DNA of 64,000 nucleotides from Squalus acanthias. Its lineage: Eukaryota. Where the stretch lies: the NCBI GenBank assembly GCA_030390025.1, contig CM059431.1, positions 124,932,001 through 124,996,000 on the forward strand. Direction: 5' to 3'. Below the pieces are notes generated by a model. It was not told the DNA's origin, did no database searches, and worked only from the letters and a program-made list of their open reading frames with translations. Positions 2,747-64,000 of the stretch are shown here, piece by piece; the stretch's first letter is position 1; each line of letters opens with the position of its first letter. A program made the translations under genes and the position numbers.

Positions 2747-5207
2747 ATAGTCCCTCTCAGTCTGTCAATGACCAGGTTTACAACATTGACCTAAGCTATG
2801 ACCTCCACTCTGCTTTCCCACTCTGAAACCTATTTTGACTTTCCAACCAGCACATTCATAGTGGTATTGAGTTCTGGGGGTGAAAACCAAGGAAAATGGT
2901 GGGTGTCAATCAAACCATGCCCATCCACCATCATTTACATATGGCAAGGCAAGCTCAGGGCAGGCATTCTCACTTACTGGTGACTTCCTCAGAAGAAAAT
3001 AATGACTGGCTCTTTTTTCTTAATTTACTGCCACTATACTTCCTGTTTCTGGGTAGGTGTAACAAGAAAAATCTAGCTCAATATTTCATATTGTTTGTAA
3101 TGTTCCGAAGGCCGTAGCACCAAAACATGCCAAAGTCCCTATTTTTAGCCATTCACTGAGATGTATGTATTCTCATACAGCCAAACACACTCTGCAACCA
3201 CGATGCAATATTAATATGTTTGTTCACATCAATCTTATTTTTGAGGCATGCTGTCTTGTTTTTGCAGTGAATTAAGGCAATGATTTGCTTATTCTGCATC
3301 ATGGATACAGAAGGAACTGGATTGAGATTGCCTGAGCATTTTTTTACATAGAGTGCTTACATCTGGGAGAAAAGAGACTTCAGTCTTGTCCATCTGTATA
3401 GCATTCAATCCCAGCTTCCTGAAGTAAAAGGATTGTCTGCTGCTTCCCATTTCCCCTGTAGTTCAATTTCTATTGTGCCATTATGATTCAGATATGTGCT
3501 TGTGTCAACTTATGTCAGGAAGTCAAAAATGACAAAATACTTCTCTCTGATCACTGTTACTGTGGTCAGAAGAGCTCCTCAATTCAATTGCTTCTCTTTG
3601 ACTCCATCAGACCCTGTACTCTGCATATTCACTGACTCATTCCTTAAGAAGTTCTGCTCGGTAGCTAATTGCTTACTAATTAATATTCCTTGACAGGTTT
3701 ATGTTCTGAGTGTGTATTCATGGCATCTTCCTCACTATTGACAGAATTAGTAACTTGAAGACCTGGCTTATGATGTGAACATTACTTTTTTCGAACATGC
3801 ACACAAAAGCAAAAAAGTCAAGCACATTAAGACACAACAAATGAATCAATAGAGTATACAATTAGGGTATTAAAGCTGGATTTAAATGAAACAAGTGACA
3901 ATTTACAGTACAGTCTAAAAGAGCTTTGTCAGTTATTCACTGATTATTTTCATTGCATATAACATTGCAAATATTGTGGAATTTGGCAAGAACTTTCAGA
4001 ATGATACATGAGTGCCGTTGGGGAAAACAATGCACAGAAAACAAGAAACTAGGTGGTTACTCATAAAGTTCTGATTGACCTATTTGGAATTAGTATGATT
4101 AATGTGAGATGATACTATGGAAGCCTTTGCACACACAATGCGATGTAAATAATCGTTTGGAAAGCACTTTTTTGCAGAATTAGTTCTGGTTTTGCTCAAC
4201 AGTTTCTGGATCAATATGGCTGCTTTTTGGTTCCTGTGACCATTTTTCCATCTATCTTTCTGCTGCATTGCTGAGATCTTTGAAAATCATTGAATATCAT
4301 TGGAATTAAAGCATAGAAGGAGGCCATTCAGCCCAGTAAATCTGTGCCAATGCTGGCATTTTAGCTAGAGCTATCTACTCTAATCCCATTTCCATATCTT
4401 TTCTCATATCCTTTCATATTCTTCCTATTCAAATACTTATCCAGTTCCCTATAAAATGATGTTATTGTCTCTACTTGAATAGTTATTTGTAGTAAAGCAT
4501 ACCATATTCTAATAAATCTGTGTGAAACAGTTTTTTCTTCTTTATTCTTTTAGTGATAAACCTGACTCTATGGGCTGGATTTTCTGGGGGGTCTGCGGGC
4601 GTGATTGGTGACAGGTTGGGTGGGAAAGTGTTTTTTCTCCCCAGTGGGTCGGAACCCCGCTGTGAACCCGCTGCCATGCGCCTTTACCAAATGATGGGTC
4701 TGTCAGAGCTGAGCAGATCTGACAGGCAGCGGCGGGGGAGGCAATTAAAATCATTAGTGGCTTGTTTACAGCCACTGATCAATGGTTTTTTCCCAGCTTT
4801 TTGGATTTGACAGGTTAACTACTGGTTTCCCGCTGTGCCTAGACCTCGTCTGTGAAGCTGAGGTGGGAGGTCAGTGGCCATTGAATCAGCTGATGAGTTG
4901 ACAGCTTCAAATGTCAAATCAAAGCTCCCAGCTGATTGAGATATGTTCCCTTAACCACTAGCTTCTCTAAACTGCATTTCCACTACAGATTCAGGATGCT
5001 GCAAGTCTTCACACAAGTCTCCATCCAGTCTGACCTCATTACCTCTCTCACCATTGACAGATCGCTTCCTTCATCTCTACTTCACCTGCCATCTATTCAA
5101 TCAGCATGGGTGCCCTTGATCCTCTCTGACCTTGGTCCTCAGAATCTCACCGCGATCAGCCCCAACACCAGCAGCACCAGGCACACCAGCAGCACCAATG
5201 ACAACAC

Positions 5208-6108: not shown

Positions 6109-6348
6109 ATTTTGTGATCTACTGAGATAATTGAAATGTTTGCGGCACTGCAGCCTGGTCCTCCTGACCACATCCCTGTTTGTGCCCTCCTCGGCAATGT
6201 GCAACCAGACTGTGTTGATCTTCTGGGGAGGTCTCTTCCGCCCATTGGAAGGGAAGGGGACCCCCCTGTGTGCGGTGACTCCCTCCATAAGCATATGGAG
6301 GGAGTCATGGGAGAGACTGGGTGCAGCCCTGCACCTCTGTGCAGTGCT
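6109..6348 (-). pseudogene. Harbinger Myb/SANT-like protein exon 1 remnant
   Basis: AAPSLSHDSLHMLMEGV..FPSNGRKRPPQKINTVWLHIAEE..RTRLQCRKHFNYL followed by a GTTAGT donor. Confidence 0.75.
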
Positions 6349-7106
6349 TGTCAGTGTTTTCAGCACCTCAATGCTGTAGAACACTGACAGCACAAATGTC
6401 AAAGTAAAGTTGGCCATGGTCCCTTTAAGGAAACCGGCTGATGACGCATCATCAAATGACGTCACCAGACCTGCTTCCTCTAATTGTCCGGCAAATGCGC
6501 TGGGCGGGCTTAACAAGTCCAATCTGGGGAAATTCATTTCAGTGGCCCGGATGAGACAGCAGCGGGGTCGGGACCCACCACCGACATCGCCCGCCACAGA
6601 CCCGCCGAGGTTCGTAAAATCGCGGCAATTGAATTCTGGCTACTGACTTACTAACCAATGGAAAAACATTTGTAACTGTTCACCCTCTCAAAACCTTTCA
6701 TAATCTTGAAAACATTGATTGAATCTATTTAATCTACTATTTTCCAATAAAAAAAAACAAATTGGGGCAGAGGTCATTTCCACTGGTTTTTTGCCCCAAA
6801 ATTGATGTGCCCGTGTTTACGATTACATTTTGCACCTTCTCGTCATCCTCCACATGAGTCTCAACAGAGCTCATTTAAATAAACTAAAATGAGGACCAAT
6901 GGTGCTAGAAATTTCTGAGGTTATGCTCGCATTGCACTGGACTAACTTACAACACAACTTATAAGATGTATCTATTGGTGGTATCAAATGAGATAGGTGG
7001 AAGTGAGGAATTTCTGAGCCTGAAGAATACAGAAACTTTGAGAACAGATTACTAGAGATGGGAAAGAATTTTTGGAGCTTTTATTTTTGCTTTGGTACTG
7101 GATCTT

Positions 7107-27605: not shown

Positions 27606-30600
27606 TCAATTACCCTTAGTGGCTATCCTATAAGTGCTCTTGCTTACTCTGGTGCTTCTAAAAAGTGCAACCCAAGTGGCAGCAGCAGGCGAGGTGCATG
27701 GCTGCTGAGATAGTGAAGAAGGCAGTTCAGATGTCCTCTTGGGATGCCCGCGAGAGGCTGTCGGCCATGATTGCCCCGCCTCAGATTGCACCATCTGCAC
27801 ATGGGCTTGAGAAGTCTGGGCCGCCTGGCTGACAGGCAACTGCAAGGGCAATGGTGGAGTGGCGGGGGAGGGAGCAAGAATGCTGCCATCCGGATAGAGG
27901 CCAGTAGTTTCCTGCTCCATGATTTCCATGCTACTACCTCGGGGCGTCTTTTCAGCTGGAGGACAGATCTACGAGCAGCTGCGACCCTCTGCAAGCCCCT
28001 TTCAACCGAGGAGCCCAGAGTCACCATAGCAGTTGTTTGAGTTTCCATTGCAGCACCTTGCCGTTCCATGAAAGGTGTAAGTAGTGCAATGGAAGCTATT
28101 TGGGCTTCCATTGCAGCACCTTGTCTTTCCATGGAAGCTGCCATAACTGCAGTGGAAGCTGTGACCTCAGTCATCAGATGTTGCATGATGTTGGGCTCCA
28201 CAGGTTGCCGGATGGAATTGGCTAGCCTCTCCACGCTGGAGAGGATGGGTTCCAGGCTCTGCGTCAAGCCATGGCCAAGCTGGAGGTAGACTCCTCCATC
28301 CCCCTAGCCAAAACCCGTAAGCTTTCAAGCAGGCTGTCCATTGCACCAAGCATATGGTTTGTCAAACCCATCAGCCTTCTTCTGAAGCTTGGCCCTGTCA
28401 GGACCTCATCTGATTCCTCTACAGCAGAACTAGTATGCAAACTCAAGCGACACTTACTCACACATAACCTGTGCACCGATGCTCAGTTTGGGTTCCACCA
28501 GGAGCACTCGGCTCCAGACCTCATTACAGCCTTGGTCCAAACATGGACAAAAGAGCTGAATTCCAGATGTGAGGTGAGAGTAACTGTCCTTGACATAAGG
28601 CAGCATTTGACCGAGTGTGACATCAAGGAGCCCTAGTAAAATTGAAGTCATTTGGAATCATGAGGAAAACTCTCCACTGGCTGGAGTCATACCTAGCACA
28701 AAGTTGGATGGTTGTGGTTGTTGGAAGCCAATCATCTCAGCCCCAGGACATCGCTGCAGGAGTTCCTCAGGGCAGTGTCCTAGGCCCAACCATCTTCAGC
28801 TGTGTCATCAATGACGTTCCTCCCATCATAAGGTCAGAAATGGGGATGTTCGCTGATGATTGCACAGTGTTCAATTCCATTCGCAACTCTTCAGATAATG
28901 AAGCAGACCATGTACACAACAGCAAGACCTGGACAAAGTTCAGGCTTGAGCTGATAAGTGGCAAGTAACATTTGCGCCACAGAAGTCTAACCACCGTCCT
29001 TGAGGTTCAATGGCATTACCATCGCCAAATCCTCCACCATCAACATCCTGGGGGTCACCATTGACAGGAAACATAACTGGACCAGCCATATATATGCTGT
29101 GGCTACAAGAGCAGGTCAGAGGCTGGGCATTCTGCACCTGCTGACTCCCCAAAGCCTTTCCACCATCTACAAGGCACAAGTCAGGTGTGTGATGGATTAT
29201 TCTCCACTTGCCTGGATGAGTGCAGCTCCAGTAACACTCAAGTAGCTCGACAATATCCAGGACAAAGCAGCCCACTTGATTGGCATCCCATCCACCAGCT
29301 TAAACATTCACTTCCTCCACCACTGGCACACCGTGGCTGCAGTGTATACCATCCACAAGATGCACTGCAGCAACTCACCAAGGCTTCTTTGACAGCACCT
29401 CCCAAACCCGCAACCTCTACCACCTAGAAGAACAAGGGCAGCAGGCACATGGGAACACCATCACCTCCAAGTTTCCCTTCAAAGTCAACCATTCCTGATT
29501 TGGAGATATATTGCCGTTCTTTCATCGTTGCTGGTTCAAAATCCTGGATAACCCTCCATAACAGCACTGTGGGAGTATCTTCAGCACACGGACTGCAGTG
29601 GTTCAAGAAGGCGGCTCACCACCACCTTCTCAAGGGCAAGTAGGGATGGGCAATAAATGCTGGCCTTGCCAGCGGTGCTCACATCTCATGAACGAATAAA
29701 AAAAAAGGTGGCCCCTGTGGTGTCCCTTCCACCCGGTGTGGCTGCTACGCACTAGTGCCTGCTGCGTGCGACTGTGAGGATTCGTGTTCTACCCTAGCCT
29801 CTAAGTTACACGTGAGCCAGTCTCTGAGCTGGTGCCTGCAAGAGTGGTAGACATTGACGCAGTGCTATCTTCCTCGCTTTCCTCCACCTCCTCCTCCTCA
29901 TCCACTGAGGGGGGGGGGGTGGGGGGGGGCGAGGTGACTCCTCCTCCTCTTCCAGTTCCTCCAGGGGGCGAGGTAGATCTTGCGCCTGTGAGCCTGCAAT
30001 GATAAAGCTAGAAGGGTTATGGTTCAGCGAGTGTGGCCACCATAGGAGGATGTAGGTGATGAGACCATATGGAGCTTGTGATTGAGGATGGGCTTGGGGA
30101 TTAGGGATCAGGAATAGTTGTTCATATGTAAGGAAGCTTGAGTGCCCACATACCTCTATGCGAGATGTCCCTTGCTGTGCCTGTGACCACGACGTCTGCC
30201 ACTCCCCGTCTGATCGCCACCAGCACTGCCTCTTCAAGGGGTATGATCTCATGCAGTCATGCTTCCCCTCCCCCAGTCAGGTTTTGCTGGTGCCTGTTAT
30301 GTGCTATCTTGTCCTGGAAGAGAAAGAGTGGTGATTGTGAATGAGTGTAATGGCAGGTGTGTTTGTGTGTGATGCCTTAGATGGCTGAAGAGCTGTGAGA
30401 TGTGTCTGAAGTGTGAGTAGTGCCTGTGAAGGATGCAATAATGTGGAGTGCATGAATGTTAGATTGTAGATGGTGAATGCAGTGTGTTGAGCTTGTGATG
30501 CTGGTGGTGGTGATGCAGTTATTGAGAAGTGTGTTTCTGAGATGTGATCTTACCTTGACTGGACCACTTGTGTCAAATCATTAAATTTCCTGCAGTGCCA

Positions 30601-30841
30601 GAGCCAAGTCCTGGGGGCAGGGCTCCTGGCAGTGACCTCCTTGGCGATCTGCTGCCACATCCGCTGCATTATTTACCTCTGTGGCCTCCTTCTCCCCTAT
30701 GGGTACAGGGCCTCCCTCCTCCTCTGTACCTGCTCCACCAGGACCTCCAATGCCGTGTCCAAGACCTTTGAGCCCTCTCCCTTTGTTCCTGAGCCATCCT
30801 GATATTTGGCATTGTCCGTCACCCAGCGTACTCCACACCTT
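27606..30841 (-). pseudogene. Harbinger Myb/SANT gene, 3 exons (exon 1 ends 30554, exon 2 30313-30154, exon 3 from 29993), LINE-interrupted
   Basis: WQQIAKEVTARS..RTWLWHCRKFNDL in exon 1, a 160-nt exon 2 with AG/GT boundaries, and coiled-coil MERQGAAME repeats in exon 3. Confidence 0.75.
28432..29706 (+). mobile_element. CR1-group (Crack/Zenon-like) LINE 3' fragment with poly(A) tail
   Basis: DAQFGF, GVPQGSVLGPTIFSC and FADD motifs. Same family as 40877-43022. Ends AATAAAAAAAAA. Confidence 0.85.
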
Positions 30842-51538: not shown

Positions 51539-54193
51539 ATTGGTGCTGCTTATGCTGTTTCACCTTGGATCTCAGATGAGGAACAAGATGAACACCAGCA
51601 GCAACACCAGCAGGAGCAGCAGGAGCATTCTCCGACTGACCTGCTGCTCCACAGGAGAAAGAGGATGAGCATAAGGTTGCAGTTTGCAGGAGGCGATACC
51701 CCCAACACAGGGTATACAGGCAGAGGATCAGCTTCCTGGACATGACTGAACACCAGTGCCTCAGGGGACTCAGGCTATCATGTCAGGTCACGGTAGACAT
51801 TTGTGGCTTGCTGGAAGAAGACCTGTTGCCAAATGGACCTGGAGGACTCGCGTTACCAGTGGTTGTCAAAGTGACTACCAATCTCAACTTCTTCCCTCAG
51901 GCTTTATCCAGGGATCTGCAGGAGATATTTGCAGGATTTTGCAGTCAGCCGCCCACAAATGCATCACCCAGGTGACCAATGCCATGTTTGCCGGGGCAGG
52001 CAGTTATGTGCACTTTGGCACTGGTGAAGCCAGTCAGAATGAGAGGGCGCTCGGCTTTGCGGATCTGGCTGGCTTCCCACAGGTGCAGGGTGTCATCGAC
52101 TGCACACATGTGGCCATCAAGGCTCCCCCAGATCACCCAGGCGTGTCGGGAACCATAAGGGCTTCCACTCCATCAATATGCAGTTCATCTGCAACCACAA
52201 AAAGATCATCATGCAGATGTGTGCCAGATTCCCAGGGAGCTGTCATGATTCATTCATCCTGCGCCAGTCCACATTCACTCAGCTCTTCGCACCTCCATCC
52301 AGGCTCACCGGCTGGCTGCTTGGAAACAAGGGGTATCCACTGAAGATGTGGCTGATGACACCCTTGAGGAGGCCAAGCAATGAGGCCGAAGAGGGCTACA
52401 ATCAAAGCCAACTGATGATGAGATGTGTTGTAAGGGTTTGTGCCTGTGTCTCAGACGGTGCTGGTGCGAGGTTAGGCCTTCATTGCCTAATACTATTGCT
52501 TGCTCTGGTCTCCGGCCAGCCTTTTTGCAATAAGCACCTGTGAGTGGTTCGACCCACTCACCCTTACAGTTCTAACACTGGACTTAGGTGCAGGAGCAGT
52601 AATGCAGCGAAAACTCAAATAGACCCGGTTGAATAGTACGAAATGGAAATCTTTATTGCATAGCGTCCAAAATCATGAAGTACATGTCATAGGCGCAAAT
52701 TAACGAGAGTACAAGTATACATACATTCATAAAGCTTGGTCTATGGAAATGAAGAACGCATGGCACATCGTAAAAAGGGGAACACATTATACTTTATCCT
52801 TAATAAAACCACCCTCCCTTATCAATACCTACACTACGTCTAGATTTGTCGGATCGGGAAACATGCTCATCACTCGTGTTAGTTCGGAGAATTTTAAAGT
52901 GAGGCACTCGGCTCGTTTCGCTGCAGCGCCTGACTGTCACGTGTTTGGAAGGGTCTCTGTACCCCACTTGTTTATCTTCGCTGCTGCAACAAGCAGGCCC
53001 GACTCCCTGTTGTCACGAAGAACTCGACAGAACTCGGACAAGGTTGTAGAACTCAAAGAAAAGTCTTCCTGTTCCCGACACCGGTTGTCGGTAGATTTCA
53101 ATGAAGAGTCTTTCTTGTATTTTCGGGCGCGGTCGGGGTTTACTGACCGTGGCGGCACGTGGATTCTTCTTCTTTTCTTGTCATTTCGTCTTGTCTTTTC
53201 GGGCCTTCGGGTCCAGACACCGTTTACCGACTCTCGGGATGGTGCACCCGGTCACTTGCCCCGTCGGGGCGGCTCGTTCCGTTTGAGCTCCACCCAACAT
53301 TCGAATAACCGTCCAGTGCGGCTAAAAGTCAAGAGTCAACAGAGTCCAGCCCTAAAGAAGAGCTTCAGCAGTCGGCAGTGAGTCGAATCAAGCGCATAAG
53401 AGGCCAGCTGGGAGAATAAGAGACCGATGGACATTTGTTCACTATAGTTATAGTGCTGTGTTCCCTTATCTCCCGCTCAAATCTTAATGTTTGTCTTTTG
53501 TGTAATATTGCCGCTCAAAACTCCCAGCATGGGGCGATTCTTCTCTTTAACGGGTTTCGGTAGCACCTGAAACTGGCCAACTACCCGTTAATGTTTTCCC
53601 CATTGTTGACCCAGCCAGGATTGTATGAACCGTCTACCTGACTTGTTTTGGGGGCCCCCGAATACTTGTTTAATCACTCGTCGATGTCTCTCTCATTGTA
53701 GAGCCGTGGGGGTATTTGTGTATTGATGTGTCTGGATGGGCCTTCGATTGCCCAGTACAATGGTCCTTACTTGTGCATGGAAAACGATTCCAGCACTTAT
53801 ATCTTTGCTATTGTTCCAAATGCAAACAGGTTGCATCCTGTCTTTATCAGTGTTTATCGAGTATGATCCAATCTTATATTGAAATGTTTATTCGAACGCC
53901 ATCTTGTCTGCCCACTGTAATTCTGGAAGCTTCTGCCACGATGCGCGGCGGCCATTTTACAGGCTTCTGTGTCCTTTATATCATGACAGCGTTTCGTTTA
54001 ATAAAACTGATCAAACGAATCTGCTTCTATCTTGTTATTTTGAATCGCGATAATTGCGAAACTTTACAGTGTAATAGAGCGAGCAATTGGGATGCTGAAG
54101 CTATGCTTCAGATGCCTGGACAAATCTGGACGAGCCCTTCATTATGCACCAGCCAGGGCCTCCAGAATAATTGTGGTATTCTACGCTCTGCAC
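51539..54193 (+). pseudogene. Harbinger DDE transposase (HARBI1-like), frameshifted and split by a solo LTR
   Basis: [40 protein letters not shown] (catalytic D to N), then MRC[LTR]VIERAIGMLKLCFRCLDKSGRALHY. Confidence 0.92.
52429..54068 (-). mobile_element. Solo LTR, 1640 bp
   Basis: TGTAA...TTACA termini and perfect GTGT TSD (52425-28, 54069-72). On the - strand: AATAAA (~52652-57), TATA-like motif (~53450), YY1-like AAAATGGCCGCC/AAGATGGCG in U3. Confidence 0.9.
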
Positions 54194-55304
54194 AGGTGGC
54201 ATTCAGAATGTGCAAGCTGTTGGTGAGAGCAAGCACACACTCGTTTGAATGCCACGTTTGATGCAACATACAGGTGGGCACCCTTTCCATGGATGAACAC
54301 ATCAAAGCCACGGCCTGCGACATCATGCCAGTCATGCTGGAGATGGACTCCTCCATTCTCTCTGCAAGTGAGCACATTGCGGCTGGAATAGCTGCCAGAG
54401 CCTCATGCATTTTCTGTTGCTCCTCCAGAATCATCCTCTTTGACAACGGCCCCCGAGGTTCAGCACATTCATCCAGCTGATCAGAGCTTGGAGCGTCCTG
54501 CACCCTCCAATGAGGACTCTACACTGCTGTCCTTGCCTGCACCATCTGTTCTTGCTCACATGTGATCTGTGGGACAACAGGTGACAACACAACTATCTGA
54601 CTTATTGGTCCCACCGACATGTGTGTATGTGCGCTGGTGCTTGCTGTGCATGTGTCCTTTTGACGGTGCACCCTCAGAGTCAGCAACTTCCTCTGAGGAG
54701 TCTTCCTCCTCTGACTGGACTGGCTGCAGGACACTTTATGGGCCTGTGGGAGAGTAAAGACATGAATTCATAGAATCATAGAATCATAGAATGGTTACAG
54801 CAGGGAAGGAGGCCATTCGGCCGTGAAGCCCGTGCCGGCTCTCTGCAAGAGCACTTCAGCTAATTCCACTCCCCTGCCCTTTCCCCACAGCCTTTCATTT
54901 TTTTTTCCTTCAGGTATTTATCGAATTCCCTTTTGAAAGCCACGATTGAATCTGCCTCCACCACCCTTTCAGGCAGTTCATTCCAGATCCTAACCACTCG
55001 CTGTGTAAAAAAGTTTTCCCTCATGTCACCTTTGGTTCTTTTGCCAATCACCATAAATCTGTGTCCTCTGGTTCTTGACCCTTCGCCAATGGGAACAGTT
55101 TCTCTCTATCTACTCTGTCCAGACCCCTTATGATTTTGACCAACTAAATCAAATCTCCTCTCAACCTTCTCAACCCCAGTTTCTCCAGTCTATCCATGTA
55201 ACTGAAGTCCCTCATCCCTGGAACCATTCCTGTAATTTTTTTCTGCACCCTCTCTAAGGCCTTCACATCCTTCCGAAAGTGCAGTGTCCAGAATTGGACA
55301 CAAT

Positions 55305-58300
55305 CGGCTCGATTTTGCCAGGCCCGAGGAGGCGGGATTGGAGGCGTCTGAGGTGGTAAAATCGCAAAAAATGGCAGACATCCTGATCCCGCCTCCATCC
55401 CGCCTCTGAGCAATTTTCCCAAATGCGTGTTTTCTGACCCCGTTTCCATCCCACCTCAAGAGGCGGGATAGGCCAGGCCCTTAACAACCAGTTAAGTGTC
55501 TCTATAATCTCATTTTGAGAGGCCTTTCTGATTTTACCACTTTTCCCACAACCTACACGTCTCCTCTGGAAGACGCCAGTGAATCCTGGCAGTCTCACAA
55601 GTGGGCTGCTTACTAACAGCTGCAGCTCCACCATTAAAAAGGAGTTTTCAGCAATCATCATTTGCAGGTGGCAAAACTTTGTTGTCTCAGGTCTGGGGGA
55701 ACTTTTGTAGAAGTTTGGAGCCTGAGACCCATTTCCAGTGTGACCTCCTGGGAAACCCCTCTCGCCTCCTTGACTGAGCGCATCCTCAACTGAGGCATAT
55801 ACCAGAAGCATCGGAACCATTTTTTTCCTTTCCTCCTGGACATCAGATTCGGACGAAGACCAGCCGTGGCAGCAGCAGAACCATGAACAACAGCACCACC
55901 AACAGCAGCAGCAACAACAGGAGCGCCAAGCTGCTGCTCACCCACCTGAAGCTGCACAGGCCAGAAGGCGCCAGCGCGCGACCACATTGCTGCCCGGGAT
56001 GCAAGGGACGCACTTATCTTGGCCAGATTTGCATAGCCTGCACAATCAAACACTTTTGCCTTACACCTTTATATCAGACCATCGACAATGGCCAAGAACC
56101 TGCGGATTCCTATCACTCTGACCATCATACTGACAATTGCAAGTCGCCCTAAGCCCTCAATGTGGAAGTTAGGCGAAATGACACATGCCACAACTTCAAC
56201 AGTTTGCCATCAGAATTTTTTATGACAATAAGCAACTGATGGCTTTTCAAAATTAAACGCATTACACCCAAGTGACTACCCTTGTGACTACTTGTGCATT
56301 ATCTTCCTCTTACGCGTGCTCCTACTTGGTGCTTCCCCTGTGGCTTCAGCAGGTGTGGAGGCTCCTTGCTCACTTTCTTGCTGCTCCTGTCTCAACACCT
56401 TTGGCAGGCGCCCTCTGGGGTTGTGAACCTGTGAGGGCTCGGCAACAGTCTGCTGCTCCTGCGGCTGTGCAGGGGTTGAGACGCCGATCTCAGTTGGGTG
56501 GGGACTCTGGTGGGGCTCTGACCGAGGGCTCTGCAGTGGCATGGTCGTGTGAGCGCTTGGAGAGGAGCCCCCACTTCCTTGTTGTCTGCCACCAACATCC
56601 CTCTCATGGGTCAACCCCACTTCAGAGCTAGCAAGTTGCTGGACAGCACCTTGCTGCACTTGAGGGGGGCCATGAGGACCCGTTTCTGCACTGGAAGTCC
56701 TACTCCAGAGGACTTACATGAAGGTCTGGTTTGTTTGCTCAATAGCTGACCATCGCTCCTCAAGAGATGTCAGTCTATTCTGAACCATTACCATGTTTTC
56801 CATACCCTGGCGACTCAGCTCCTCCATGGCCGTAACCATCCTCTCCTCTACAGAAGCCATCCTCTCCTCTACGGTAGCCAGCCTTACCATGGAGGTAGCC
56901 ATCCTTTCCAAGGAGGTTGCCATCCTTTCCGTGGTGATGCATTCATGCGCCAACGCCTCCACAAAGGCTCTGCTCATGTTAGCGATGGACTCCTCCATTC
57001 GCTCCACACTCGCAGCGACCCTGGAGACAAAACCTGCCAGAGACTCCTGCACCTGTTCCTGGAGTTCCAGCACCGCTCTCCTTCTGGATGGACCCGGAGG
57101 CAAAGGGTCGACATGCAGCGGAGCCGAGCTGGGAGCGTCCTCTCCACAGTGACGAGGACTCTCCACTGCTGTCCCTGTCTCCACCATCTGCTGATGCTCA
57201 CTTGTGAGCTGTAATACATCAGGTGACGACTCTACTCTATGTCCAGAAGGTCTCACCGAGGTGTGAGTGTCTGCGCTGGTGCAGGGTGCGCTTAATTCTG
57301 CTGACGGAGCACCCTCAGAGGTTGCAGCTTCCTCTGAGGAGTCTGGAAGCTCAGGCTCTTCCTCCTGGACAGTGGGGACGAGGGCTCTCGATGGTCCTGT
57401 GGGGGAGTAAAGGAAAGAGTTAGAGATGTGAGGTAAAGGTTGCATGCACATTGAATTGTGCAGATGATCATATGTCAATCTGTAAGAGCATCAGAATCAT
57501 TATCAGTCACTCATGCAATGTCAATGAGAGAGATGCCAAACTATTCTGTCACCAGCTTGCTGTGATGCGCCCGCATGTCCGTCCCCCATTTGGGAATCCT
57601 CCTCGATCCCGGCAATTTCCAGGGCCGCCTCCTCCGAGGTGGTGAGCTGGGCTACTGAGGGTGGCCCTCCTCCTGTCCTCACTCTTTCCCTCTTATTGTG
57701 GGCTCTCTTTTCCTGCAATGAGGGACACAAGTGGAGTTTGAGTGAGAATGAAGGAGTGAGTGTAGAGAATCCATAGCATAGATGCTTAGAAGGAGACAAA
57801 GGGCCCTCCCTGTGTGTTGTAAGTTGTTGTCATTGTGTCACAGTGATAGGGCGTGTGAGGGCTGCATGGTCGAATAGTTAAGTGAATGTGACCATAGAGA
57901 GAGAGGGAGTGGGTAAGGCTGCAGGGATGTCAGTGTCAAGTGGGATGTGGAGGAAGAGGTTGGCAAAGCTGAGTGCTGGTGATGAGAGGCGATGGGGATC
58001 AGATTGAGGGTGATGGGAAAGTCATACTCACTTTTCCTGTGCGGAGAAGGTCATGAAACCTCTTCCTGCACTGCAGCCAGGTTCTGCAGCACATAGAGAT
58101 GGCATTGACCTCCTGGGCCACTTGCAGCCACACAGCTTTAGTCTGTTGTGGTGGCTTTTTTCTCCCTGAGGAAGGGAAGAGAACCTCCTTATTAGATCTT
58201 GCTCCCTGCACCAGAGCTTGGAGGGAGGGCTCATCAAAGCGAGGTGCACACTTTTGCTTGCTGGTGGACATTGTCGATAAATGAAGTCGTTCATACAATG

Positions 58301-58550
58301 TCCAAAGCGTTTCCAGTCTCCAGAAGAATCAAGGCTGCTTGCAGGCCTTAAATCCAACAGCATTTTTGACGTCATCGGAGGCGACTTTTTGTATGAAAAG
58401 ACTCATTGGGCCAGGGGTTCCCACACGCAGGAAATCAATTGCCCAATTAGGGAAAATCCCACTTTTTCAACACATCACTTCGGAGTCGGGGTCCTGACAC
58501 GATTTCCACCTGACACGCCCCAGCTCGCCCACACTGACAAAATCAAGCCC
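55305..58550. mobile_element. Myb-only Harbinger derivative, copy 1 (3246 bp)
   Basis: TIR CGGCTCGATTTT / AAAATCAAGCCC and AAT TSD (55302-04, 58551-53). Confidence 0.92.
56288..58271 (-). pseudogene. Myb/SANT-like + coiled-coil protein, 3 exons (58271-58032, 57712-57553, 57396-56288), 502 codons with one premature TAA (56714-16)
   Basis: Canonical GT/AG sites with compatible phases (0, 1). APRFDEPSLQALV..WLQVAQEV..RTWLQCRKRFHDL; basic C-terminus RSTRKRK. Confidence 0.88.
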
Positions 58551-58620
58551 AATATTTCAGTTGAGATCGGACCAGTGTTATATAAAGGCTTATCATAACT
58601 TCCTTGCTTTTGTACTCTAT

Positions 58621-61600
58621 GGGCTCGATTTTGACAGGCCCGAGGATGCGGGATTGGAGGTGTGTGAGTTGTTAAAATCACCAAAAATGGCAGGTGGGCC
58701 CGATCCCGCCTCCGAGCAATTTTCCCAAAAGCGTGTTTTCTGACCCCCTTTCCATCCCGCCTCCAATAGGCGGGATAGGCCCTTAACAACCACTTAATTG
58801 CCTCTATAATCACATTTTGAGAGGCCTTTCCGATTTTTCCTCATTCCCCCCAAGCCTCACGCCTCCTCTGGAACACGCCAGGTAATGCTGACGGCCTCAC
58901 AAGTGGATTGCTTACGAACAGCTGCAGCTCCACCATTACAAAGGAGTTTTCACCAATGACCATTTGCAGGTGGCAGAACATTGTTGTCTCAGGTCTGGGG
59001 GAACTTTTAGCAGGCATACTCAGTGTTGTGGAAGTTTGGAGCCTGACACCCATCTCCAGTGTGACCTCCTGGGAAACCCCTCTCCCCACCTTGACTGTGC
59101 GCTTCCTCAACTGAGGCATATACCAGAAGCATGGCGACCATTTAATTCCTTTCCTCCTGGACATCAGATTCGGATGAAGACCAGCCGCAGCAGCAGCAGA
59201 ACCATGAGCAACAGCAGCACCAACAGCAGCAGCATCAACAGGAGCGCCAAACTGCTAGTCACCCACCTGAAGATGCACAGGCCAGAAGTCACCAGAGCGC
59301 GACCATATTGCTGCCCAGGATGCAAGGGACGCACTCATGTTGGTCACATTTGCTTAGCCTGAACTATCAAACACTTTTGCCTCGCACCGTCTTACCAGAG
59401 CATCGCCAATGGACAACAACCTACGGATTCCTATCACTCTGACCACCATACTGACAAATGCAAGTCGCTCTAAGCCCTCAATGTGGAAGTTCCATTTGCA
59501 AAATGACACAGGCCACAACTTCAACAGTTTGCAATCAGAATTTTTTTTATCACAACAAGCAACTGGTGGCATTTCAAAAATAAGCACAACATAACACCCA
59601 AGTGCCTACCCTTGTGACTACTTGTGCATTATCTTCCTCTTACGACTGCTCCTACGTGGTGCTTCCCCTGTGGCTTCAGCAGATGTGGAGGCCCCTTGCT
59701 CAATTTCTTGCTGCTCCTGTCTCGATACCTTTGGCGGCCGTCCTCTGGTGTTGCAAACCTGTGAGGGCTCGGCAACAGTCTGCTGCTCCTGTGGCTGTGC
59801 AGGGGATGAGACGTCCATCTCAGTTGGGTGAGGATTCTGGTGGGGCTCTGATTGAGGGCTTTGCAGTGGCATGGTCGTTTGAGTGCTTGGAGAGGAGCCC
59901 CCACTTCCTTGTTGTCTGTCACCAACATCCCTCTCATGGGTCAGCCCCACTTCAGAGCTAGTAAGTGGCTTGACAGCACCTTGCTGCACTTCAGGGGGGC
60001 CATGAGGACCCGTTACTGCACTGGAAGTCCTACTCCAGAGGACTTCCATGAAGGTCTGGTTTCTATGCTCAGTAGCTGACCATCGCTCTTCAAGAGATGC
60101 CAGTCTATTCTGAACAATGACCATGTTTTCTACACTCTGGCGACTTAGCTCCTCCATGGCCGTAGCCATCCTCTCCTCTACTGTAGACATCCTTTCCACG
60201 GTGGTTGCCATGCTTTCCGTGGTGATGCGTTCATGCGCCATTGCCTCCACAAAGGCTCTGCTCATGTTCGCGATGGACTCCACCATTCGCTCCACACTCG
60301 CAGCGACCCTGGAGACAAAACCTGCCAGAGACTCCTGCACCTGTTCCTGGAGTTCCAGCACCGCTCTCGTTCTGGATGGACCCGGAGGCACAGGGTCGAC
60401 ATGCAGCTGAACCGAGCTGGCAGAGTCCTGCGCCCTCCGACAAGGACTCTCCACTGCTGTCCCTGTCTCCACCATCTGCTGATGCTCACTTGTGAGCTGT
60501 GATACACCAGGTGCCAACACTACTCTATCTCGTGAAGGTCCCACCGAGGTGTGAGTGTCTGCGCTGGTGCTGGGTGCGCTGAATTCTGCTGTGGCTGCGC
60601 CCTCAGAGGTTGCAGCTTCCTCTGAGGAGTCTGGAAGCTCAGGCTCTTACTGGACAGTGGGGACGGGGGCTTTCAATGATCCTGTGGGGGAGTAAAGGAA
60701 CGAGTTAGAGATGTGAGGTCAAGTTTACATGAACATTGAATAGTCAATCTGTTAGAGCATCAGATTCATTATTAGTGACTCATGCAATGTCTATGAGAGA
60801 GATGGCAAACTATTCTGTCACCAGCTTGCTGCGATGAGCCCATCTGTCCGTCCCCCACTTGGGAATCCTCCTCGATCCTGACAATTTCCAGGGCTGCCTC
60901 CTCCCAGGCGGTGAGCTGGGTTACTGAGGGTGGCCCTCCTCCTGTCATGGCTCTTTCCCTCTTATTGTGGGCTCTCTTTTCCTGCAATGTGGGACACAAG
61001 TGCAGTTTGAGTGAGAATGAAGGAGTGAGTTTAGATAATCCATAGCATAGATGCTTAGAAGGATACAAAGGACCATCCCTGTGTGTTGAAAGTTGTTGTT
61101 GTCATGGTATCACAGTGATAGGGAGTGTGAGGGCTGCATGCTCGAATAGTTAAGTGAATGTGATCTTCGAGAGAGAGGGAATGGGTAAGGGTGCAGGCAT
61201 GTAAGTGTCAAGTGGCATGTGAAGGAAGAGGCTGGCAAAGCAGAGTGCTGGTGAGGAGAGGCGATGGGGATCAGATTGAGGGTGATGGGAAAGTTATACT
61301 CACTTTTCCTGTGCGGAGAAGATCATGGAACCTCTCCCTGCATTGCAGCCAGGTTCTGCGGCTCAGCAAAATGGAGTTGACCTCCTGGGCCACTTGCAAC
61401 CACTCTGCTTTTGTCTGCTGGGGTGGCTTTTTTCTCCCTGAGGAAGGGAACAGCACCTCCTTATTACATCTGGCTCCGTGCACCAGAGCTTGGAGGGAGG
61501 GCTCATCAAACCGAGGTGCACACTTTTGCTTCATCATGGACATTGTCGGGAAATCAACACCTTCATACAATTTGCAGAGCCTTTGCAGTCTCCAGAGGAA

Positions 61601-61823
61601 GCAAGGCGGCTTGCAGGTCTTAAATCCAGCAGCATGGATGATGTCATTGGAGGCGACTTTCTGTATGAAAAGACTCATTGGGCCAGGTGTTCCCACACGC
61701 AGGAAATCAATTGCCCAATTAGGGGAAAATCCCACTTTTTCAGCACTTCACTTCGGAGTCGGGGTCCTGACACGATTTCCACCTGACACGCCCCAGCCTG
61801 CCCACACTGACAAAATCCAGCCC
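58621..61823. mobile_element. Myb-only Harbinger derivative, copy 2 (3203 bp)
   Basis: TIR GGGCTCGATTTT / AAAATCCAGCCC and TAT/TCT flanks. Colinear with copy 1. Confidence 0.92.
59618..61543 (-). pseudogene. Myb/SANT-like + coiled-coil protein, 3 exons (61543-61304, 60981-60822, 60681-59618), 487 codons with one premature TAA (60647-49)
   Basis: Same 240- and 160-nt exons and splice sites as copy 1; frame conserved throughout. Confidence 0.88.
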
Positions 61824-61842
61824 TCTGCCTCTATTTATGAAA

Positions 61843-62104
61843 TGATGCGGAGATGCCGGTGTTGGACTGGGGTGGACAAAATTGAGAGTTCGCACAACAC
61901 CAGGTTATGCAGATAGTCAGGATGATATAATTTAGTTGTCTGCAATTGTAAGGTACACATGCATTGTTCTCTATCTATATATGCTTTGTCGAGTCTGTAT
62001 TTCTTTACTACTTCACCTGAGGAAGGGGCGATCGATAGCTCCGAAAGCTTGTGATTTCAAATAAAACTGTTGGACTATAACCTGGTGTTGTGCGACCTCT
62101 CAAT
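61843..62104 (+). mobile_element. Penelope-like element fragment with an inverted 5' piece
   Basis: 13-bp TSD TCTATTTATGAAA (61830-42, 62105-17) and a 29-bp inverted repeat at 61880-61908 / 62077-62105. Confidence 0.85.
62013..62054 (+). ncRNA. Minimal type I hammerhead ribozyme motif
   Basis: Stem I TCAC/GTGA, CTGAGGA (62017-23), stem II GGGGC/GCTCC, GAAA (62043-46), palindromic stem III AGCT, CUU triplet ending at 62050. Confidence 0.75.
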
Positions 62105-64000
62105 TCTATTTATGAAACCCAGGATCCCGTATGCTTTTTTAACCACTTTCTCAACCTGCCCTGCCGCCTTCAACGATTTGTGCACATACACCACCAGGTG
62201 TCTCTGTTCATGCACCCCCTTTAGAATTGTACCCTTTAGTTTATATTGCCTCTCTTCGTTCTTCCTACCAATATGTATCACTTCACACTTTTCTGCATTA
62301 AGTTTCATCTGCCACGTGTCCGCCCATTCCACCAGCCTGTCTATGTCCTCTTGAAGTCTATCACTATCATCCTCATTGTTCACTATACTTCCAAGTTTTG
62401 TGCCATCTGCAAATTTTGAAATAGTGCTCTGTACACCCAAGTCCAAGTCATTAATTAGAACTGTCACGATGAGACTGTTTTAAGTGAACATTGTGCACAT
62501 GATCATATTTCTCTTGCTGCTGACATCAAGTCAACATGAGTGACTGTCATATGCCAGGTGACCGTGTGATATTTAATTGTGTCACCGGGTAGCTGGGCGC
62601 TCCCCGTCTCTCCATCTCCCACCGCCATTAATGCGGATACTCAGTTATCTTGAGTGCCTCCTCCTCTGCTGCAGTCAGCGTGGCTATGACTGGAGGGACA
62701 CCTCCGGTTCTCTGGCTCTCCCAGGTGTTCTGTGCTCTCTTCTCCTGCAAGGAGGGAAACAAGAGACCTTTGAGTAAGAGCCATGGAATGAGTGGAACGG
62801 ATGGATGGGCAACATCTGTAGAGGGCGATTATGAGGGAGAGGCGTGATATTGCATTAAGATGAGGGGGAGTGTCAGTGATGGATGGTCAGATGAGGATGT
62901 GAGGAAGTGCATAGACAGAGAGGGATGGGTGCACCTGCAAGGTAGGTTGGTGTGAGGAGTGATGTGCAGGAGTAGGCTTGGGAAGGCAGAGTGAGGGGGT
63001 TGGGGTGACACACACATCAGGATGTAGTTGAATGTGGCATTGTACTCACCTTCCCTGACTTCATGAGGTCATTAAATCTCTTCCTGCACTGCATCCAGGA
63101 CCTCGTCACCACACTCCTGCTGCTCACTTCTGACGCTATCTCCAGCCATGCCTTATTGGTGTCTGAGGTTGTCCTCTTCCTCCTGTCAGCAGAGAATAGG
63201 ACCTCCCTGCGGGCCTTAACTCCTTGCACCAGGACTCCCAGGGAGGCATCACTAAATCGAGGGGCAGCTTTCAGATGCTGAGACTGCATTTTTTGTTCTG
63301 CAAACAAAACAAATTTCTCTCCAAACAAACTACTCTCTCTCACCAATGTCTCTCCACCTCCACCAACCTTCAACTGTCATCTGTGCATTGCTGCTTTAAA
63401 TACCTGAGCTGAATTGGACCCATGCGTGATGTCATCATGCCTGCTCCCGTTAATTGGTTGGGAAACCCGGAAGTCAGATGCAAATGCAGTGGCTTCATTA
63501 AAAAGCCACTGACAACACGCCACTTAAACGTCTGGATTCCCCATGCGATGAAGGGCTCCCCCGCTGCCAGCACCTCAGAAAGGTAAAAATCCCAGACATA
63601 GAACCCATTTAGAGTATGTGTTTCAGGGAAGCCCGCACCAAAAAAGAGCTGTTTGCCAGCAGGCTGGCCCTCTGCTTTTAATAAGGCCATCATTCTCTCT
63701 ACTATTTTTTGTCTTTGAGCTCCAATGGACAATCAATGAAAGCAGTTACTGTGTCCCGACCCACTTATTGTAGGAAAAAAATAATAGCACTATAGAAAAT
63801 TGTTTAATTGCTGCTGTTGCCCAACAATCTTGTGCCCAAACTTTGTGGCATTGCCAGCCTGTGATGCATCAGATTTGGGCAGGTATCCTTGCCACATACT
63901 CGGTAGAGCAGGTTAAAATTTCTGGAGTTTCTGGAGGCTTTCCGGTGAGCAAGTAACCTCGGCGATTTGACCTGCTCACCCACCCGCCCAGTTTCCACCA

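Follow-up and report, generated by a model that had tools for sequence, protein, structure and literature searches.

Transposase-deleted Harbinger elements with a Myb-like gene in Squalus acanthias: amplification beside coeval two-gene relatives

The stretch of DNA analysed here ("the window"; 64,000 nucleotides, positions 124,932,001 to 124,996,000 of contig CM059431.1 in the Squalus acanthias assembly GCA_030390025.1) carries two closely related Harbinger DNA transposons, E1 and E2. Both have lost the core of the transposase gene and have kept a spliced gene that encodes a DNA-binding protein of the Myb-like kind. Elements with this deletion multiplied in the genome after the transposase was lost, and it is fairly probable that two-gene sister families of the same age moved them in trans. 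The elements and the host sequence between them, in window positions, are as follows.

55305..58550, + strand: E1, transposase-deleted Harbinger element of subfamily A, 3,246 bp, triplet AAT on both sides
55305..55321, + strand: left terminal inverted repeat of E1, first base mutated
58534..58550, - strand: right terminal inverted repeat of E1
58551..58620, - strand: piece of the host long interspersed nuclear element (LINE) separating E1 from E2, 70 bp; the LINE goes on at both sides
58621..61823, + strand: E2, transposase-deleted Harbinger element of subfamily B, 3,203 bp, flanking triplets TAT and TCT
58621..58637, + strand: left terminal inverted repeat of E2
61807..61823, - strand: right terminal inverted repeat of E2

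E1 and E2 have the same orientation, lie 70 bp apart and are identical in 2,860 of 3,170 aligned columns (90.2%). Short terminal inverted repeats (TIRs) and 3-bp target duplications place both among PIF/Harbinger elements. Moreover, they are multi-copy and TIR-flanked, and their termini are kept with one gene deleted, which is the pattern of a "solo-ORF" (single open reading frame, here Myb-only) Harbinger. The host LINE, which we take to be CR1-like, has an RVT_1 match at 62078-62479 that stays below the cut-off (E 9.7e-05). In uninterrupted copies of this LINE, the empty site of E1 reads AAT in 11 of 14 matches; that of E2 is less clean, with TAT in four and AAT in four of 19 matches. Both empty sites are also visible in loose ends. 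Because the flanks and the spacer belong to one LINE whose other copies show the empty sites, E1 and E2 are two insertions, which agrees with the independent origin that the preliminary description had read from the differing triplets. An origin by tandem duplication is ruled out, since both the subfamilies and the insertion sites differ.

The remains of the transposase gene are delimited by alignment to two-gene relatives:

55810..55977, + strand: E1, N-terminal remnant, Gln-rich, ~56 codons, with ATC in place of the start codon
55978..56036, + strand: E1, C-terminal scrap beyond the junction (~55977/55978), not in the reading frame of the N-terminal part
59131..59357, + strand: E2, transposase remnants with the same junction (~59298/59299) and a stop at codon 5 that is fixed in subfamily B

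In the deleted elements, ~56 N-terminal codons are thus fused out of frame to ~19 C-terminal codons, and a profile search of the E1 and E2 remnants gave no match to DDE_Tnp_4. The two-gene relative L091, which lies beside a fetched copy and is colinear and ~85% identical, has an open transposase with this domain (E 5e-32), and the ends of its transposase match the E1 and E2 remnants. Hence, the Harbinger type of the transposase is recognized through this relative, and the earlier reading of a Gln-rich N-terminus joined to a C-terminal scrap devoid of DDE motifs is borne out. The missing segment measures 1,021 bp relative to the two-gene family P and 1,018 bp relative to family Q. Sequence adjacent to the junction in subfamilies D and E is 0-2.6% from family P, which places the origin of the deletion in a P-like element. 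The closer two-gene relatives were located by a pattern on the C-terminal side together with a DNA search; the 30 top loci of a genome search with DDE_Tnp_4 were set aside, as they represent a distant Harbinger family that lacks any useful DNA match to the present one. A distinct and apparently very young Harbinger family (loci L061-L090) has many near-identical open transposase frames of ~385-391 codons.

The Myb gene runs on the opposite strand:

58032..58271, - strand: E1 exon 1, Myb/SANT-like domain, 80 codons
57553..57712, - strand: E1 exon 2
56288..57396, - strand: E1 exon 3, acidic linker, 21-bp heptad repeats and basic tail; premature TAA at 56714-56716
61304..61543, - strand: E2 exon 1
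60822..60981, - strand: E2 exon 2
59618..60681, - strand: E2 exon 3, premature TAA at 60647-60649 adjoining a 3-bp deletion; two heptads fewer than subfamily A

It has three exons with intact GT-AG sites, 1,509 nt in E1 and 1,464 nt in E2, and one internal stop in each copy. The protein matches Myb_DNA-bind_5 (PF13873) above the cut-off (E 8.8e-11 in E1 and 6.2e-06 in E2), as befits the second gene of a Harbinger. The 21-bp repeats (56836-56934 and 60162-60230) encode coiled-coil heptads, the number of which depends on the family (474, 488, 495 and 502 residues). The consensus frames are open, with 502 residues in subfamily A and 488 in subfamily B, in line with the spliced gene and open consensus of ~490-500 residues noted from the two copies. 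The premature stop in E1 had been given as a GAA-to-TAA change, which is wrong: relative to its own subfamily, it is CAA to TAA. The gene had also been called almost intact; neutral decay at that age predicts just this state, with ~1.2 stops and 1.0 frameshift per copy. Open Myb frames are found in 8 of 55 single copies, and A and B together have four in 45 copies versus 4.7 expected from non-coding mutation rates. Inserted single copies decay neutrally.

Two of four putative RNA runs, from two studies, contain a joint from which precisely intron 1 is missing, with GT-AG ends; its short sides are 20 and 28 bases, and it does not discriminate between deleted and two-gene copies. The joint weakly supports the Myb gene model. 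In a second set of run contigs, no intron joint is present among the matches listed (15 of 79). Domesticated Myb genes of Harbinger origin are familiar, as in MSANTD and NAIF1, but this explanation was rejected for the present gene, which is multi-copy, TIR-flanked and interrupted by a stop in both copies.

How widely is the deletion shared? In the 3.7 Gb genome, a pattern of 31 bases that spans the junction is matched exactly 956 times, and its reversed control has no match; full-length copies lie at many loci, which provides the copy count that the preliminary description had proposed. The pattern is present in 15 of 55 or 15 of 74 copies fetched by other means, giving a rough extrapolation, from small samples, to ~3,500-4,700 deleted copies. 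The undeleted junction has 1,086 exact matches and its pattern recovers 23 of 27 a-type copies and 6 of 22 of the p-type, which corresponds to roughly 2,400 two-gene copies, again extrapolated from small samples. (This pattern was used instead of an earlier one with 238 matches, the design of which excluded families P and Q.) Two star-like subfamilies are represented in the window, A by E1 (alignment of 22 copies) and B by E2 (23 copies); five of 58 other loci were partial and were excluded from the alignment. Outside CpG, the distance to the consensus is 1.4-1.8% in A and 1.5% in B, and 1.3%, 1.6% and 2.7% in the two-gene families a1, a2 and P, respectively. Collectively, these data show that the lineage multiplied after the loss of its transposase, and it therefore used a transposase in trans. 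This part of the earlier proposal of a "semi-autonomous" lineage stands, as does the open Myb consensus; its other part, that the lineage supplies its own specificity adaptor, is weakly supported at best, for the reasons given below.

Candidate sources of the transposase are close at hand. Family Q accounts for five of 20 copies sampled with the P-type junction, and its distance to consensus is 1.7%. Its left TIR is that of A, from which it differs by 1.9% over the first 256 bases and by 12.9% at the right end. One of the five Q copies has an open transposase frame of 419 codons, and open frames are also present in 7 of 22 P, 5 of 15 a1 and 4 of 11 a2 copies. Moreover, the deleted, P and a families have a common target preference, palindromic around an A/T-rich triplet. 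Since two-gene relatives are abundant and one has both the same termini and the same age, there is no need to invoke a foreign transposase or a partner with the transposase only. The possibility that A and B persisted beyond their parent and were forced onto the divergent a1 or a2 transposase is weakened by the coeval family Q. In the recognition-helix region of the Myb protein, A, B, P and Q do not differ from one another, and a1 has a single residue changed. This identity argues against a private specificity of the deleted elements, despite differences in the N-terminal residues.

A second deletion bears on whether an element needs its own Myb gene. It is 593 bp long and takes away the end of exon 3, such that the protein ends within the coiled coil. 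The deletion has 118 exact matches, occurs in 7 of 40 copies picked by exon 1, and its carriers have an age of 2.2% (11 copies), as old as A. The doubly deleted copies are at loci L154, L156, L165, L188, L251, L252, L257, L262, L263, L269 and L274. Because this Myb-truncated subfamily multiplied, a full-length Myb gene in cis is not required. Exons 1 and 2 are intact in these copies, and it is possible that they give a truncated protein. Proteins of the rice elements Ping and Pong function in mixed pairs, according to the available portion of the report (PMC2836001).

The subfamilies are mosaics, segment by segment. Among 40 copies fetched by the junction pattern, two have the termini of the autonomous family a1 (group H; L177 and L183) and six have other termini (group G; loci L152, L162, L163, L170 and L186 carry the deletion junction on such ends). 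Group H is 0-4% from a1 everywhere but in the junction region, where two 80-bp windows differ by 14-16%. This match to a1 except around the junction means that an autonomous backbone received the deletion by copying. Conversely, all six A-specific changes in exon 1 are identical to autonomous P, and were therefore imported. The silent distance between P and a1 is 0.087 in the transposase core versus 0.75 in exon 1, and that between a1 and a2 is 0.004 versus 0.17. Template switching during the repair of excision gaps is known from work on the P element, and this process probably produced the mosaic pattern here. As an observation in its own right, divergence between families is several times higher in the Myb-domain exon and the termini (window 58032-58550) than in the transposase core or the adjoining intron, with a sharp step at the border of exon 1 and intron 1. 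One possible cause is that the DNA-binding domain and the ends are coupled.

The course of events that we propose begins with one deletion, as the single common junction with flanks nearly identical to family P shows. Amplification then gave several star-like subfamilies, ~2% from their consensus, with transposase presumably supplied by coeval two-gene families: Q, which has the same left TIR, and possibly a1 and a2. As the mosaics show, recombination among relatives, probably by template switching, put the deletion on other backbones and passed patches of the Myb exon from autonomous to deleted lineages. The masters were probably still a source of functional Myb protein for a shared pool, and an element would not have depended on its own full-length gene for mobility. 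After insertion, copies decay neutrally, as the single copies show. In short, the deleted elements are best regarded as a non-autonomous family, in the masters of which the Myb frame stayed open through youth and recombination, perhaps with mild selection.

Several observations weigh against this reading. The deleted elements seem to outnumber the two-gene ones by ~1.5-2 to 1, on a rough calibration. The consensus Myb frame is open in A, B, C, D, E, F and G, the exceptions being C2, a mosaic group of four copies with a frameshifted consensus, and H, whose two copies give an ambiguous consensus with a stop. In exon 1, replacement and silent changes stand at 12:11 among shared variants versus 56:11 among singletons (odds ratio 0.21, p 0.0045), a variant counting as shared when four or more deleted copies and no more than one of 66 two-gene copies carry it; the count covers 84 A-D copies, with partial copies excluded beforehand. 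Changes specific to B in exon 1 comprise four replacements to six silent ones (p 0.024), and some of the B divergence postdates the loss of the transposase, because B differs from the others within a few bases of the junction. Finally, no transposase core was found in 40 elements picked by the A-D type of exon 1 (40 of 782 matches, one contig); 32 of these span the junction, seven are incomplete and one has only a 68%, neighbour-derived match. Genuine selection on the retained gene thus has some scope; at the sequence level the result is suggestive of purifying selection after the loss but not decisive, and what is left of the exon-1 signal without its imported part is borderline. We regard it as doubtful, but worth retaining, that the DNA-binding domain was under such selection (best seen on the B branch) and that the deletion, spreading by recombination, makes Myb-only parasites of autonomous sister families, which the parasites come to outnumber.

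A related proposal, which we consider rather unlikely, is that of a semi-autonomous "adaptor" lineage, in which selection would have kept the Myb gene after the loss of the transposase because it favours the element or subfamily that carries it, with only the transposase being borrowed. The exon-1 deficit and the B changes speak for it, as do the open consensus frames beside a transposase remnant whose stop is fixed in B and C. In the same direction, exon 1 and the termini stay family-specific and the interiors are common, and the A-D type of exon 1 is the best match of none of 20 undeleted-junction copies. However, the part of the signal due to A is the imported P patch, and when C and D are added to B and the state common to autonomous families is removed, the ratio becomes 5:5 (p 0.09). 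The high silent divergence of exon 1 is also present between autonomous families, and the exon-1 lineages may predate the deletion. The same variant test finds no replacement deficit in exon 3 (odds ratio 0.89, p 0.72), although constraint on exon 3 is weak even from one autonomous family to another (0.5-0.6). A specificity adaptor of its own is further weakened by the coeval family Q with the same left TIR, the identical recognition helix and the expansion of the Myb-truncated subfamily. An A-versus-B ratio of replacement to silent substitution rates (dN/dS) of 0.46-0.56 was dropped as proof of selection once the mosaicism was found. The dN/dS comparison suggested in the preliminary description therefore has a split outcome: the value is close to 1 for exon 3 and for single copies, and low for exon 1, partly explained by recombination with autonomous families. 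This result is a caution that the dN/dS measured between subfamily consensuses can be inherited from autonomous relatives via recombination.

At the other extreme, the Myb gene could have been inert cargo from the outset, its frame kept open by youth and refreshed by recombination. The neutral decay of copies, the exon-3 ratio near 1 and the imported patches are what this view expects; B is 4-8% from its sisters in non-coding parts, yet its frame is open and its splice sites are intact, and together with the replacement deficit in exon 1 this makes pure cargo quite improbable. Half of a two-component system, as the preliminary description had also suggested and as a precedent in Caenorhabditis inopinata would allow (PMC13668399, from the part available), is scarcely credible, since two-gene relatives are abundant (66 further copies aligned), and 20 copies sampled from the 1,086 undeleted-junction matches, about half of them full two-gene elements, include no repeated transposase-only structure and no recurrent Myb-side deletion, a single one (L283) having kept the transposase core without Myb exon 3.

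The target duplications form a subject of their own. Of 114 full-length relatives, 58 have identical flanking triplets and 56 do not; 26 are mismatched at two or three bases. In the same elements, the outer three bases of the TIRs differ in ten cases, always by a single base. E2 is one of the mismatched cases (triplets at 58618-58620 and 61824-61826). Empty sites were readable for 40 of 162 elements: the target triplet is found on both sides in 16, on one side in 14 and on neither in 10. Target duplications in the doubly deleted subfamily match in 9 of 10 measurable copies, unlike the parent family. Staggered cutting at the duplication has been proposed for mPing (PMC4561436), and asymmetric duplications of piggyBac have been attributed to mismatch repair (PMC8717057), as far as the available parts of these reports indicate. 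Here, donor overhang bases could be carried into new sites; mismatched triplets may also result from swapped flanks or re-insertion at old sites. If overhang carry-over is true, these loci would serve as evidence, at the level of a genome, of the way in which the ends of Harbinger elements are cleaved and joined.

Other Harbinger sequences lie in the same window. A degenerate two-gene element of a more distant family occupies 51688-54760, with transposase pieces at 51688-52432 and 54068-54199 and a piece of Myb exon 3 at 54264-54638. Pieces of other Myb-like Harbinger genes, with 29-47% identity to the A protein, are present at 62646-63289, 6115-6354 and 30460-30759. A 29-bp inverted repeat with a 168-bp spacer (61880-62105) lies within a further insertion in the host LINE. 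Elsewhere in the genome, Harbinger elements and short derivatives often lie within ~1 kb of each other, frequently at the same LINE sites (L005, L011, L015, L027, L029, L043 and L050).

How do these elements relate to known systems? The comparisons refer to the portions of the cited reports that were available. In Harbinger3_DR of zebrafish and Ping/Pong/mPing of rice, there are likewise two genes and a 3-bp target duplication, and the proteins work in trans, also when the pair is mixed (PMC2836001, PMC9179366). The Myb-like protein binds the element ends and imports the transposase (PMC2836001, PMC9179366), and both proteins are needed for transposition of Harbinger3_DR and Ping (PMC2836001). 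The non-autonomous partners described there are non-coding, unlike those considered here, and the target here is a loose A/T-rich triplet inside a longer palindromic preference, not TAA/TTA. No Harbinger is reported in the elephant shark (PMC9179366). No published description of the present family, or of mismatched target duplications in a vertebrate Harbinger, was found in the literature covered, which leaves out Repbase and subscription journals.

The Myb-only architecture is not new, as it is already published (PMC8437027, PMC13668399). Harbinger-Snek of Laticauda sea kraits, with 452 intact DNA-binding-only copies in L. colubrina, is a vertebrate case of multi-copy DNA-binding-only variants alongside full two-gene elements (PMC8437027); transposase-only variants dominate there (2,263), whereas here the Myb-only class is the abundant one and no transposase-only family was seen. 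Neither a test of selection nor an analysis of shared junctions appears in the available text on Harbinger-Snek. Harbinger-1M_cIno and -2M_cIno of C. inopinata are expanded MADF-only derivatives for which a DDE transposase is proposed to act in trans (PMC13668399). In contrast to the present case, the part of that report available describes 25 MADF loci and one intact DDE gene, and intact two-gene elements are absent. The present family has thousands of copies beside abundant two-gene families, and one junction recurs across backbones. The setting turns an open question into a testable one, namely whether selection can act on the helper gene in a two-gene DNA transposon when the transposase itself is missing. 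Relative to these systems, what is new is the scale, the dated autonomous partners and the record of recombination.

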